64,000 nucleotides of DNA, taken from the NCBI GenBank assembly GCA_934098705.1, contig CAKOPC010000002.1, forward strand, positions 26,990 through 90,989, in the 5' to 3' direction. Source of the DNA: an uncultured Bacilli bacterium. Lineage in GTDB: Bacteria; Bacillota_I; Bacilli_A; RF39; UBA660. The number at the start of each line of letters is the position of its first letter. Positions within the stretch are counted from its first letter, which is position 1. Positions 22,817 to 64,000 of the stretch are shown here, one piece after another. A program made the translations under genes and the position numbers. The notes beneath the pieces are model-generated. The model saw only the letters and a list, made by a program, of their open reading frames with translations. It was not told the DNA's origin and searched no databases.

Positions 22817-23413
22817 CTACTCTCCTTCACAAGATGTACATAAACCAAGATTTACATCTTGCATATATAATTTTAATTTTTCCTTTAGGCTCTCTACTCT
22901 ATCTTTAGTCCAGTATTGTACTGGAGTTATATTATCTTTCATAACTGATGTTTCATTATCATGATGAATTATATTACCATCAACAACAAATGATACATCA
23001 GGCACAAATATCTTTTCATTACCCTCATCATCATATAATAAATTACCATTTAAAGCCTTAAGAAGTTTTTTATAAAAATCAGTATTATTTTTTCTATCAT
23101 CTAATATATTATAATAATAAATCTTCTCTATTTCTTCTTCTTTTGCAACTTCATTTAAATATTTAACATAAGCTTTGCACCAAGGACACTCTGGGAACCC
23201 TAAATAAACAATACCTGTTCCATGTTGTAATATCTTTAAAATTTCATCTTGAGTTCTATAAACAAATACATTATCAGTTGTAATACCATATTCATCACTA
23301 AATTTTTCATTATCTGTCTTACCAAAATTCTTATTAACTATGGTATATATTATAAAAGCAATTAAAATAGAAGATATTATCATTAAAAACATTGTTAATA
23401 TTTTCTTTTTCAT
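22817..23413 (-). CDS. Membrane-anchored thioredoxin-fold protein (CPWC active site)
   Basis: 198 aa; N-terminal TM anchor, CxxC motif in FPECPWCKAYVKYL consistent with a thioredoxin-like fold. Confidence 0.5.
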   Translation of the reverse strand: MKKKILTMFLMIISSILIAFIIYTIVNKNFGKTDNEKFSDEYGITTDNVFVYRTQDEILKILQHGTGIVYLGFPECPWCKAYVKYLNEVAKEEEIEKIYYYNILDDRKNNTDFYKKLLKALNGNLLYDDEGNEKIFVPDVSFVVDGNIIHHDNETSVMKDNITPVQYWTKDRVESLKEKLKLYMQDVNLGLCTSCEGE

Positions 23414-23477: not shown

Positions 23478-23512
23478 AAAATAAAAAAACTAATAACAAA
23501 ACTACTTATTAG
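23478..23512 (-). terminator. Candidate terminator at the 3' end of the methyltransferase gene
   Basis: 7-bp inverted repeat CTAATAA / TTATTAG overlapping the stop codon, followed on the minus strand by a U-rich tract (TTTTTTTATTTTA). AT-only stem, so weak. Confidence 0.35.
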
Positions 23513-24224
23513 TCTTTCTATTTTCTAAATCAATACTTGTTGGAATATCTATTTTATTATCTGGTATTTCAAGTCCCCAGTTATCCCATCCATTATAATT
23601 TTCTCTTGCAAATAGTTCAATTTTTTCCTGAAATGGAAACATTTTACTTATACCTTCTATCACCTTAACAGGTTTTTTACTATGTTCTTCTCTTGGAAAA
23701 GTAATAAGTTGTCTTACATTTCTAGCTCCTCTAGGAGTTGGTATCACACCTTTTTTAAAGACAAGACAAAATTCAGTTTGTGATAAAGTATATCTACCTG
23801 GATTATGAATCATTTTATCCCACACAAAAGCAACTGTTTTATATTCAAATCCCCAGTAATTTCCAAGTTTTATAGCATTTTCAAACTGTGGTCCTGTAGT
23901 CCACATAAAAAGTAAACAACTTTTACTATCTGCAATAGATAAAACGTCAAGTTGCATTAAATCTTTAAGTTTTAAAGTGGGATACTTAAAAGATGCTGAA
24001 CTTAAAAAAATATTTTTAGTAAAACCAACATTTAAATCTTTTATAGTAGTTTTATCATATTGATATTTACCACCATAATCCCAAGGAGGATCCATATAAA
24101 TAATTTGATATTTTTTATTAGGTAATTTTGGATAAAGTTCATCTAAAGGATTAACCTTCTTTCTATTCTTACCTTGCACGTTATATATTGAATATGCTGT
24201 AATATTTTTACTACTATTATCCAT
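23502..24224 (-). CDS. MT-A70-family (beta-class) N6-adenine DNA methyltransferase; R-M system M subunit
   Basis: 240 aa. Catalytic motif IV DPPW (YMDPPWDYGG). Size and MT-A70-type arrangement fit a DNA MTase; divergent from a C-protein/REase pair. Confidence 0.75.
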   Translation of the reverse strand: MDNSSKNITAYSIYNVQGKNRKKVNPLDELYPKLPNKKYQIIYMDPPWDYGGKYQYDKTTIKDLNVGFTKNIFLSSASFKYPTLKLKDLMQLDVLSIADSKSCLLFMWTTGPQFENAIKLGNYWGFEYKTVAFVWDKMIHNPGRYTLSQTEFCLVFKKGVIPTPRGARNVRQLITFPREEHSKKPVKVIEGISKMFPFQEKIELFARENYNGWDNWGLEIPDNKIDIPTSIDLENRKTNK

Positions 24225-24285
24225 AATTTCACCTCATTATCATTTTACATTTTTATTAATATTTAGTCAATAATACATAAAAATG

Positions 24286-24330
24286 TTGTATATATACCGT
24301 TGTAATATATACCAAGTGTATATTATATTA
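24286..24330. promoter_or_regulatory. Candidate C-box / operator in the divergent M <- -> C intergenic region
   Basis: Palindrome GTATATATAC (24288-24297), second copy AATATATACC (24304-24313) 14 bp downstream, and GTGTATATTAT (24318-24328), immediately upstream of the C-protein ATG (24347). Confidence 0.35.
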
Positions 24331-24346
24331 ATGATGGTGATGCAAA

Positions 24347-24556
24347 ATGGACTTAGAAAAATTAGGAAATCGTATAAAATCTCTAAGACAAAATATGGGA
24401 ATAAGTCAAGAAGACTTTGCTCTTCAAATAGGTATGGATAGAACATATTATTCCGCAATCGAAAATGGTAAACATAATATTACTATTAAAAATTTATACA
24501 AAATAGCAAACGGTTTAAAAATAACAATTAGTGAATTATTAAATATTTTTAAATAA
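24347..24556 (+). CDS. Controller (C) protein, XRE-family helix-turn-helix regulator of the R-M system
   Basis: 69 aa; HTH (ISQEDFALQIGMDRTYYSAIENGK). Sits between the MTase and REase genes, the classic C-protein position (as in PvuII/BamHI-type systems). Confidence 0.7.
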   Translation: MDLEKLGNRIKSLRQNMGISQEDFALQIGMDRTYYSAIENGKHNITIKNLYKIANGLKITISELLNIFK

Positions 24557-24571
24557 TTTAATGGAGGTTGT

Positions 24572-25180
24572 ATGGGTAAATTACAGTTAAGTAAAAGAGC
24601 AAACTGGGAAAGTACAAGTGGTAAAAAGGCAGAAAAAGCAGAACAAAACTTATATAAAGTTTTTGAAAAAGAATTTAAAAATACAAAATATATTTTATAT
24701 AAAAAGCCTACATTTTTAAAAGATTTATATGCAAATGTAAAACTTGATGATGAAGTTTTAAAAGCAATTTATAATCCAAATATTGATTTAAAGAAAACAA
24801 AATGGGGCATTTGTCCTGATTTTGCTATTCAAAATAAAGAAACAGGTAAAATTCTTTTTGGAGAGATAAAAAGACAAGATGGCTGGGTTGAAGGAAAAAA
24901 TCCAAGTGCAGGAAGAGGTAATGCTCACGAAAGATTCTGCAAATTCTTCACACCAGGATTATTAAAAGCATGTCGCAAAATTGGAAAAATAAAAAGTAAA
25001 GAAATTCTCCCATTTTGGGTAGTCTTTGAAGGAGATGTTACAAGAGATCCAAAAAGAGTAAGAGAAATAACTTTTTTATTTGATAAATATAACAAAAACT
25101 TTTTTATGTGGCGTCCTAATGAAACTGGTGATGTGTTAATTAATCACTTTAACAAATACTTAAAAAAATATTTAGACTAA
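24572..25180 (+). CDS. Putative type II restriction endonuclease (PD-(D/E)xK fold)
   Basis: 202 aa. Candidate PD...(D/E)xK motif: GICPDFAI ... FGEIKRQ. Follows the C gene by 15 bp with an RBS (GGAGG). Confidence 0.55.
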   Translation: MGKLQLSKRANWESTSGKKAEKAEQNLYKVFEKEFKNTKYILYKKPTFLKDLYANVKLDDEVLKAIYNPNIDLKKTKWGICPDFAIQNKETGKILFGEIKRQDGWVEGKNPSAGRGNAHERFCKFFTPGLLKACRKIGKIKSKEILPFWVVFEGDVTRDPKRVREITFLFDKYNKNFFMWRPNETGDVLINHFNKYLKKYLD

Positions 25181-25197
25181 AATTCTAAATATTTTTT
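25165..25197. terminator. Intrinsic terminator at the 3' end of the REase gene (bidirectional with the PAP2 gene)
   Basis: 11-bp stem AAAATATTTAG / CTAAATATTTT with a 9-nt loop containing the TAA stop, followed by TTTT. Confidence 0.45.
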
Positions 25198-25210
25198 ATA
25201 TGTTTTATTA

Positions 25211-25858
25211 TTATAAATCTAAAATATCAAAATTAAGTATTAAATCAAATAGTTTTTTATCTTTATATTTTTCAGCCACTTTATAAATTAATTTAGTTAT
25301 AAAGTAAGCGATAACAGAAGCTGTAAAGCCTGATGCTATGCCTCCTAAAATGTCTGATGGATAATGTACCATTAAGTAATTTCTTGAAATACCCATTAAG
25401 ATTAAAAATATAAAAGCACTCCAACCTTTCTTTTTATCACAAATCAAAAATACACTCATTGCAAAAGCAGAAGCAGCAGTTGCATGTCCTGATGGAAAAG
25501 AAAAACCATCTTCCATAACACTTCCAGCATCATTCCACCATGTATTATAAACACCTAAAGTATCTATAAAAGGTCTTGGTCTTGCAATTAAATCTTTTAA
25601 AATAATATTTGTAAATATTGCCCCACAGCCAATAGCACCAAAAATACATATTCCAAGTTTTCTTGTCTTTTTAAAAAGCATTAAAATAATAGATAAAAGT
25701 ATTAAAAATATTCCCTTTTCTCCAAGTAAACTTATAAACTTAAAAAAAGGTGTAAAGAAACCATTTGTTGCCTCTAAAAACTTATGTAAAGCCTCTAAAA
25801 TTGCATAATCATACGAAGCAAAAGCATTATTAATTAAATTTGCTACATTAAATAACAT
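25211..25858 (-). CDS. PAP2-family membrane phosphatase (undecaprenyl-diphosphatase / lipid phosphatase-like)
   Basis: 215 aa. PAP2 motifs KxxxxxxRP (KDLIARPRP), PSGH (SFPSGHATAASAF), SRxxxxxHxxxD (SRNYLMVHYPSD); polytopic. Confidence 0.75.
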   Translation of the reverse strand: MLFNVANLINNAFASYDYAILEALHKFLEATNGFFTPFFKFISLLGEKGIFLILLSIILMLFKKTRKLGICIFGAIGCGAIFTNIILKDLIARPRPFIDTLGVYNTWWNDAGSVMEDGFSFPSGHATAASAFAMSVFLICDKKKGWSAFIFLILMGISRNYLMVHYPSDILGGIASGFTASVIAYFITKLIYKVAEKYKDKKLFDLILNFDILDL

Positions 25859-30453: not shown

Positions 30454-31236
30454 TTATTTAACGTTTTTTGACTTATCTATAGCCTTGCAACATAAATTGC
30501 ATAAAGGACACTTTAAACATAAAGGATTCGTAGGAAAGCAAAAAGTTCTCCCTAAATTCCAAAAGGCAGTTGTTAACTTACCTGGAAAAGAAGGATACAA
30601 TTTCCTTGCTTCATCTATTATTTCTTTTTGATTATCATTTTCAACAAGTCCAAGTCTTAAAAATAATCTACGAATATGAATATCATAAGCAATATCAATA
30701 TTTTCTTTATCTAAAATATTAACATTCATATCTCTAACTAATATTAAAGTTCCAAGTGATGCTTTTTTATGACTTATTCCTTTAAATTTTTCCAAATTTG
30801 AAACTATAGAAGCAGCACTTTGCCCTTTCCATATGTTAGAAGCATTAGAATCATACTTATTAACTATATCATAAATTGCACTATAAATATAATTAGCCAT
30901 TTTTTTAGGATATCTGTGTAATGCCTTATTTTTCCTAATTAAATTTTCAAGTTTTGCTTCATTATACTCTTTTAATATTCTATTAAAGTCAAAATAACCT
31001 ATTCTTTTAGACAATTTATATGGTAAACTCCAAGCAACAGATGCATTTACTGATTGGTCTGCTATTAAACCAATAATAAAAGCATTTACATTATTATAAA
31101 TAAAATCTTTTTCCTCATTTTCTAGTAAATTAGCCTTTAAAATACTGCTTTCATCCTCTATTTTTTCTAAATATTCTAAAACTGCTTTCAATATATTACT
31201 CTCTTTTTCAGTCAAATTGTTACCTTTCATAAACAA
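30454..31236 (-). CDS. HhH-GPD superfamily DNA glycosylase-like protein with endonuclease III-type [4Fe-4S] cluster loop
   Basis: 260 aa. HhH-like GISHKKASLGTL, Asp-containing YDIHIRRLFLRLGL (cf. EndoIII VDTHIFRV.NRLGL), C-terminal C-x6-C-x2-C-x5-C (CFPTNPLCLKCPLCNLC). Confidence 0.5.
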   Translation of the reverse strand: MFMKGNNLTEKESNILKAVLEYLEKIEDESSILKANLLENEEKDFIYNNVNAFIIGLIADQSVNASVAWSLPYKLSKRIGYFDFNRILKEYNEAKLENLIRKNKALHRYPKKMANYIYSAIYDIVNKYDSNASNIWKGQSAASIVSNLEKFKGISHKKASLGTLILVRDMNVNILDKENIDIAYDIHIRRLFLRLGLVENDNQKEIIDEARKLYPSFPGKLTTAFWNLGRTFCFPTNPLCLKCPLCNLCCKAIDKSKNVK

Positions 31237-63161: not shown

Positions 63162-63809
63162 CTATAATTTTTTATTTTTTTGTGATTGTTTGACTGTTTC
63201 AAATATGTGATTTGCATCTTGCTTTAACAAATCTGGATTCTTAACGTATTCTAACAATTTTTCTTTAGAATAATTTTCTAGCATGTATTTTCCTAAAGTA
63301 TATGAGTAACTATACCCGTTTTCTGTTCCATTAAAATCACTTTTTAATTTTTCAAAATCACAATATTCTAAACTAACTGGTGAATAATCTTGATTACTTA
63401 GATTAGTTGCCAATGCTTCCCAATACCAACTAACACCCTTAGAATTTTCATTCCACTCTTGCTGACATGAATGCACAAACTCATGTAGTATGCATTTTAT
63501 AAATTCTTCCATATCCATATCTTCATGTTCTTTAGATTTTCTTGCTTCAGACATTTCTAACAAGTTAATATTACCATCATATGTATCAGCACACATCCAT
63601 TCTTTAAATTCTTTTACAAATGGCAACAAATGTTTCTTGTATTTTTCTCTATCAGTAAAAATCACTACTTTCTTTTTTTGAGAAAGTTTTTCAAGTTCAA
63701 AAAATTCTAAAATTTCAATGGTATTGTTTTCTAATGTTGAAATTATATTTGACATATAATCAATCTCTTTGTCATATTCAATAGTAAAATTACTAAGTTC
63801 GATTTTCAT
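63162..63809 (-). CDS. Hypothetical protein with HExxH zinc-metallopeptidase-like motif
   Basis: 215 aa; ILHEFVHSCQQEW ... WEALA suggests a gluzincin-type HExxH...E arrangement; no further family assignment possible. Confidence 0.4.
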   Translation of the reverse strand: MKIELSNFTIEYDKEIDYMSNIISTLENNTIEILEFFELEKLSQKKKVVIFTDREKYKKHLLPFVKEFKEWMCADTYDGNINLLEMSEARKSKEHEDMDMEEFIKCILHEFVHSCQQEWNENSKGVSWYWEALATNLSNQDYSPVSLEYCDFEKLKSDFNGTENGYSYSYTLGKYMLENYSKEKLLEYVKNPDLLKQDANHIFETVKQSQKNKKL

Positions 63810-64000
63810 CTAATCATCTCCAAATCTATATCTATTATATCATACTAATTCATATTCTCTAGCTATTATTCTCTCATCAGAACAATATTTAATTATATAT
63901 TCATTATCTTGTTTGCAAATGATAATTCCTACTGTAGCATTTTCTTCAATTGTTTTTATATTCTTATCTATATAATTCATATAAGTCATAATTTGACCAG

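Follow-up and report, generated by a model that had tools for sequence, protein, structure and literature searches.

Within a 64-kb stretch of DNA from an uncultured Bacilli bacterium (referred to below as the window, that is, the whole stretch analysed), three genes encoding a methyltransferase (M), a controller protein (C) and a restriction endonuclease (R) form a compact cassette which very probably represents a functional, controller-equipped type IIP restriction-modification (R-M) system of the MunI family, predicted to be specific for CAATTG and residing for a long time in this species, though its family is mobile. An initial annotation of the same DNA had described an M/C/R unit placed between a thioredoxin-like and a PAP2 gene, and all three open reading frames (ORFs) were found where it had put them. 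Its view of the unit as a compact C-controlled type II R-M system, with a divergent MT-A70/DPPW methyltransferase, an XRE-type C protein and a PD...ExK endonuclease, agrees with the profile matches reported below. Thus the kind of system was recognized properly, while an endonuclease without discernible family and a recent insertion, both also put forward there, did not withstand the analysis.

Endonuclease, methyltransferase and controller

The R gene (24572-25180, plus strand) encodes a protein of 202 amino acids (aa) which, judged from its sequence, is a MunI-family type IIP PD-(D/E)xK restriction endonuclease and a full-length homologue of R.MunI. Its residues 1-202 align with residues 1-202 of the crystallised enzyme (PDB 1D02, 202 aa) at ~69% identity (E=2e-95), the Pfam model RestrictionMunI (PF11407) is matched at 1.4e-64 with 217.9 bits (cutoff 25), and the match to PADLOC REase_II covers profile positions 1-202 of 202 (7e-100). 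The endonuclease initially thought to belong to no recognizable family therefore has one, whose members already carry the NCBI name “MunI family type II restriction endonuclease”; R homologues of this family fill 2,555 database clusters and almost all of them are exactly 202 aa long.

In an alignment of 23 sequences (the window protein, the 1D02 chain and 21 diverse homologues), the active site P82-D83...E98-I-K100 of R is present, P82, E98 and K100 being invariant, and alanine at position 83 is met only in the 1D02 chain, which is the D83A crystal-form sequence. All eight residues of the segment G114-R-G-N-A-H-E-R121, the counterpart of the EcoRI GNAxER motif, are invariant too, and in MunI this GRGNAHER segment (114-121) reportedly makes base contacts, an observation credited to Deibert and co-workers in 1999. 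The site of MunI is CAATTG (PMC5896346), and that of EcoRI differs from it in no more than the outer base pair (PMC5896346; PMC4081073). Since the catalytic residues D83/E98/K100 and the GRGNAHER segment are kept, R is predicted to recognize CAATTG and to cut it as C^AATTG, so that a known specificity is expected in place of the possibly new one suggested earlier. By homology, R would act as a homodimer on unmethylated CAATTG, and M, transcribed divergently from its own promoter, would methylate an adenine within CAATTG on the host DNA; we infer both the cleavage and the methylation specificity.

The M gene (23502-24224, minus strand) encodes 240 aa with MDPPWDY at residues 44-50 and DPPW at residues 45-48. 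Its product matches Pfam MT-A70 (PF05063) over profile positions 1-172 of 172 (1e-17; 65.1 bits at a gathering cutoff of 23.9) and PADLOC MTase_II PDLC03262 (7.7e-66), and the solved structures closest to it are MT-A70 enzymes. Homologues of M with ~70% identity adjoin MunI-family R genes in 66 of the 80 loci described below. M.MunI is a circularly permuted N6-adenine methyltransferase grouped with MT-A70 (PMC4738411), and M of the window is likewise predicted to be an MT-A70-family (circularly permuted, beta-class) N6-adenine DNA methyltransferase protecting CAATTG. Labelling it as M.MunI was considered and dropped, as this name is carried by none of the 120 M homologues listed, all designated just “MT-A70 family methyltransferase”, and a cluster look-up added nothing.

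The C gene (24347-24556, plus strand) encodes an HTH_3 controller protein of 69 aa, which matches Pfam HTH_3 (2e-18) and PADLOC Control_protein (4.1e-21) and has C.AhdI (5e-11), C.BclI (2e-9) and C.Esp1396I (2e-9) as the closest solved structures. Its assignment as the antitoxin of a toxin-antitoxin pair was rejected: the NCBIfam HipB-like matches all lie far under their cutoffs, and both the controller-protein models and the context fit a C protein. R starts 15 nucleotides (nt) past the stop codon of C and is preceded by its own GGAGG Shine-Dalgarno sequence, all three ORFs being intact in the window. The spacer between C and R (24557-24571) is 15 nt long in the window and some strains and 11 nt long in others (L002, L004, L007, L009, L010, L013, L016 and L018), and this indel could alter the translational coupling of R.

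Among the named systems, that of MunI (Mycoplasma sp.) likewise has an R of 202 aa, colinear with and 69% identical to the window protein and having the same active site and GRGNAHER segment, and in both cases an MT-A70-type M and a C protein go together with R. The original MunI system, described by Siksnys and co-workers in 1994, is said to have the same divergent M / C-R layout, and MfeI is an isoschizomer of MunI. The differences concern the host (Mycoplasma versus an uncultured human-gut Bacilli bacterium of ~25% GC), ~31% of the R residues and the left half of the operator, which is a variant in the window. EcoRI and RsrI (GAATTC) are also PD-(D/E)xK enzymes of the alpha branch, reach their DNA on the side of the major groove and recognize the inner AATT (PMC4081073; PMC5896346), but they differ from the window system in low sequence similarity, another outer base pair, the lack of a C protein and a partner methylase of a different class; EcoRI-type models gave no match to the window R in Pfam or PADLOC scans. 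With the PvuII, AhdI, BclI and Esp1396I systems the cassette shares a small HTH_3 controller upstream of and co-oriented with R, a divergent M and a bipartite operator on the C/R promoter, and their classical GACTnnnAGTC box is found in many MunI-family members as well, whereas neither their R nor their M is related to that of the window.

The distribution of the family was followed in 80 metagenomic loci encoding relatives of R (54-99% identity). Of these, 66 show the M<- ->C->R layout, most of the others being truncated by contig ends, and C stands directly upstream of R in the same orientation in 76. A different order was seen in one locus (L093:2791-4332), where C and R are followed by a convergent M downstream, in place of a divergent M upstream. 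Because the same layout is met in hosts whose flanking DNA spans 26-66% GC, against 29-43% for the cassettes themselves (47 loci), the cassette family is plainly horizontally mobile, as had been proposed initially for R-M units of this type. Carriers, however, are scarce on catalogued plasmids and phages (0 matches among 72,556 plasmids, one partial match among 50,697 phage records and 11 matching contigs of 2.9 million in IMG/VR), and for this reason no vector is proposed.

Depletion of CAATTG in the host DNA

The sequence predicted as the target of R occurs in the window only once (63947-63952), while 23 ± 4.9 copies are expected from dinucleotide shuffles and 22.3, 14.9 and 11.9 copies from Markov models of order 1, 2 and 4, respectively. 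The resulting ratio of observed to expected counts, 0.04, is the lowest of all 64 palindromic hexamers in the window. This depletion is not lineage-wide: the ratio equals 0.97 in 106 kb of distant Bacilli relatives and 1.6 in 38 kb of nearer relatives, no cassette being seen in either set. Around other MunI-family cassettes, 138 kb of dereplicated flanking host DNA give a ratio of 0.40. The lone CAATTG of the window is located near its end, beyond the last complete ORF listed (63162-63809), and may sit in an ORF running off this end.

Many other palindromic hexamers are also 4- to 8-fold under-represented in the window, namely GAATTC (2 versus 15.9 expected), TGTACA (3 versus 16.8), TGATCA (3 versus 15.7), CTTAAG (5 versus 23.6), TCTAGA (4 versus 16.6) and AGATCT (4 versus 16.5), suggesting exposure to further restriction systems encoded in the window or outside it.

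Operator, promoters and terminators

Upstream of C, the window contains a C-box operator (24284-24316, plus strand; TGTTGTATATATACCGTTGTAATATATACCAAG) with the family-invariant core CCGTTG. In the other loci (n=59), a conserved element of ~32 bp stands 5′ of C with the consensus TGT[T/G]ACT[T/C]ATA[G/A]TCCGTTG..TTATA..CA.C, and in many family members it includes the classical C-box GACTnATAGTC. A position weight matrix built from these 59 loci only, with the window excluded, was run over both strands of the 64 kb and gave its top match at 24265-24324 (plus strand) with a score of 14.8, the runner-up scoring -0.9. The window operator is most like those of loci L041 and L037. The GACT/AGTC symmetry is lost in its left half, which reads GTTGTATATATAC in place of GTTACTTATAGTC, and the CCGTTG core and the GTTG...CAAG repeat of the right half are kept. 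The operator of C.MunI is among the C-protein sites determined experimentally (PMC2632904).

A promoter-like site for M is found on the minus strand at 24242-24270 (TTGACT, 17 nt, TAAAAT; 10 of 12 positions matching), and its -35 hexamer, AGTCAA on the plus strand, is conserved 5′ of the operator in most loci. On the plus strand, a promoter-like site for C and R lies at 24300-24329 (TTGTAA, 18 nt, TATATT; 9 of 12), the -35 element being overlapped by the right half of the operator. Both promoter-like sites agree with the canonical design. The same geometry is repeated in other loci, with the -35 element within the right half of the operator and the -10 element ~17 nt downstream; we infer that the C-R promoter occupies this position. 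By analogy with systems of the PvuII, AhdI and Esp1396I type, C would bind the operator at 24284-24316, between the two promoters and over the -35 element of the C-R promoter, activating C-R transcription at low concentration and repressing it at high concentration. Through this C-dependent transcription, the appearance of R would be delayed relative to M, and binding of C may dampen the adjacent M promoter as well.

Hairpins folding significantly better than dinucleotide-shuffled controls are present 3′ of both M and R. The first (23478-23524, minus strand) has a 19-bp stem (folding free energy, dG, -15.8 kcal/mol; z -3.98) followed by a U-run (UUUUUUUAUUUU), and its 5′ arm overlaps the M stop codon; it is likely an intrinsic terminator and is still present in the deletion strain L030 considered below. 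The second (25163-25197, plus strand) is composed of AT pairs only and has the last codons of R as its 5′ arm (dG -10.3, z -3.75 on the plus strand; dG -12.6, z -3.70 on the minus strand). Since it separates two convergent genes, R and PAP2, and folds on the opposite strand just as well, it is probably a bidirectional terminator shared by these two genes and not private to the cassette. The terminators that the initial annotation had assigned to the cassette as its own are thus borne out as hairpins, although the one on the R side probably belongs to the neighbour as well. A consensus scan for GC-rich terminators calls neither of them because their stems are AT-rich.

On the M side, the cassette is flanked by a gene for a PedC-like/thioredoxin-fold membrane protein of 198 aa (22817-23413, minus strand) and on the R side by the PAP2 phosphatase gene (25211-25858, minus strand), convergent with R; ftsA and ftsZ are situated 1-3 kb from the cassette. 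Transcription of C and R opposes the minus-strand direction that prevails locally, and the sign of the local GC skew tracks gene orientation, the plus strand of the whole window having 9,969 C versus 6,139 G. Approximately 5 kb from the cassette, a gene for an HhH-GPD-like protein (DNA glycosylase fold, 260 aa; 30454-31236, minus strand) represents a presence/absence polymorphism of the species: it is found in the window and in L003, L008 and L015 and is absent from the collinear same-species contigs L001, L002, L004-L007, L009, L014 and L016-L018.

Residence in the species and alternative explanations

The same-species contigs, derived from human gut metagenomes with Hadza samples included, carry the cassette at the same site in 12 of the 12 that are distinct and intact among those listed, and all three ORFs are intact in 19 of 19 listed loci with an intact cassette, some of which overlap on one contig. 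The within-species ratio of nonsynonymous to synonymous diversity (pN/pS) is 0.05 for R and 0.11 for M, the neighbouring genes giving 0-0.16, and both M and R are under purifying selection. Synonymous diversity (pS) of the cassette, 0.02-0.03, equals that of the flanking genes. Its GC content is 26.1% versus 25.2% for the window, and GC, GC at third codon positions (GC3) and synonymous codon usage are all within one standard deviation of the host ORFs (n=49). The GC content of the window cassette is below that of every other locus, suggesting amelioration. In this uncultured gut Bacilli species the cassette has long been resident and has become host-like in composition. The initial annotation, having implied a recent insertion, had also held that a cassette conserved in all relatives would not be one; since it is conserved in every distinct intact same-species contig listed, always at the same site, this implication is abandoned, the more so as comparison with the flanks revealed no contrast in GC, codon usage or pS and CAATTG is purged ~20-fold.

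One strain has lost the system. Contig L030 (Logan SRR17806424), 97.5% identical to the window in nucleotide sequence over 3.1 kb on the PAP2 side, has a deletion of 1.15 kb (window ~23925-25072; L030:2954-3599) across a TAAAAGTT microhomology, which has eliminated the control region between the genes, the whole of C, residues 1-96 of M and residues 1-166 of R. What is left are R residues 167-202 and a remnant of M (residues 97-240), which has since been frameshifted and interrupted by a premature stop codon. This remnant implies that the system is ancestral in the species and was lost in at least one lineage. L030 was therefore rejected as an empty site, being of the same species and having an internal deletion, and no empty site was found in any listed same-species contig. 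The search via FtsA in species-representative genomes, a collection which does not include the species itself, reached distant relatives only (FtsA 38-45% identical), sharing just ftsA-ftsZ, and the search via PedC-like homologues led to the next species (62-66% identical), where PAP2 does not stand beside PedC and where, due to rearranged neighbourhoods, no clean empty site is available. As for the PedC-like gene itself, it has the highest within-species pS of the genes tested (0.068), and its product in L030 (L030:3600-4193) is 71% identical though the adjacent DNA is 92-97% identical, so that a recombination breakpoint next to the cassette, or the replacement of an allele there, may be suspected.

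Several observations weigh against a functional CAATTG-specific system. R departs from its homologues at five nearly invariant positions (H48F, E87Q, L125F, I156V and W169L), the operator does not follow the family consensus GACTnATAGTC in its left half, the assignment of M comes from Pfam and PADLOC models and from co-occurrence with R, the depletion of CAATTG in the pooled flanks of other hosts is moderate (rank 19 of 64), and the system is dispensable, as one strain lost it by deletion. The deletion in L030 with its disrupted M, the unusual substitutions in the window R and the degenerate left operator half could be taken together as signs of a decaying or silent relic, in which R or the whole system is inactive, M is at most an orphan and the depletion of CAATTG is a fossil. 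We hold this to be improbable in view of the integrity of the ORFs in all listed loci with an intact cassette, the pN/pS values similar to those of housekeeping neighbours, the intact catalytic triad and the retention of promoter-like sites, Shine-Dalgarno sequences and hairpins. Recent horizontal acquisition, with insertion between housekeeping genes, would be in line with the mobility of the family over hosts of very different flank GC, with the unrelated housekeeping genes on both sides and with the nearest other species, which have other gene orders and no cassette; nevertheless, the failure to find an empty site in the listed same-species contigs, the host-like GC, GC3 and codon usage, pS equal to that of the flanks and a 20-fold purge of CAATTG, which needs long time, leave it little chance. 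Isoschizomers are commonly less than 69% identical, and this counts against a drift of the MunI-family pair away from CAATTG, whether by a change of the outer base pair or by relaxed recognition. Such a drift, which might be suspected from the five substitutions, from the 69% identity with R.MunI and from the different outer bases read by the related folds of EcoRI, MunI and MluCI (PMC4081073), is very unlikely given that GRGNAHER at 114-121 is unchanged and CAATTG is depleted in the host more than any other palindrome, yet undepleted in relatives without the system.

With a functional MunI-family system thus retained as the best explanation, the cassette represents a well-known kind of anti-phage system, and nothing in it points to new biology. 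The gain is little beyond annotation, namely a system predicted to be specific for CAATTG, an isoschizomer of MunI and MfeI, in an uncultured and very AT-rich bacterium of the gut Bacilli. For transformation or cultivation of this bacterium, CAATTG sites in incoming DNA would have to be methylated or eliminated, and the system would be useful for binning by methylation motif. It may be suggested, though only as a rather doubtful proposal, that L030 represents a natural escape from R-M addiction or, alternatively, that the R substitutions and the variant operator mark a sub-lineage with altered cleavage. Since CAATTG is purged from the host ~20-fold, loss of the methylase would expose few cleavable sites, and, if the escape is real, this purge may have let the L030 lineage drop C, together with the 5′ portions of the M and R genes, in one microhomology-mediated event and survive. 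The near absence of CAATTG and the natural deletion variant serve, on a small scale, as a clean example of how a genome and its resident restriction system coevolve over long times.

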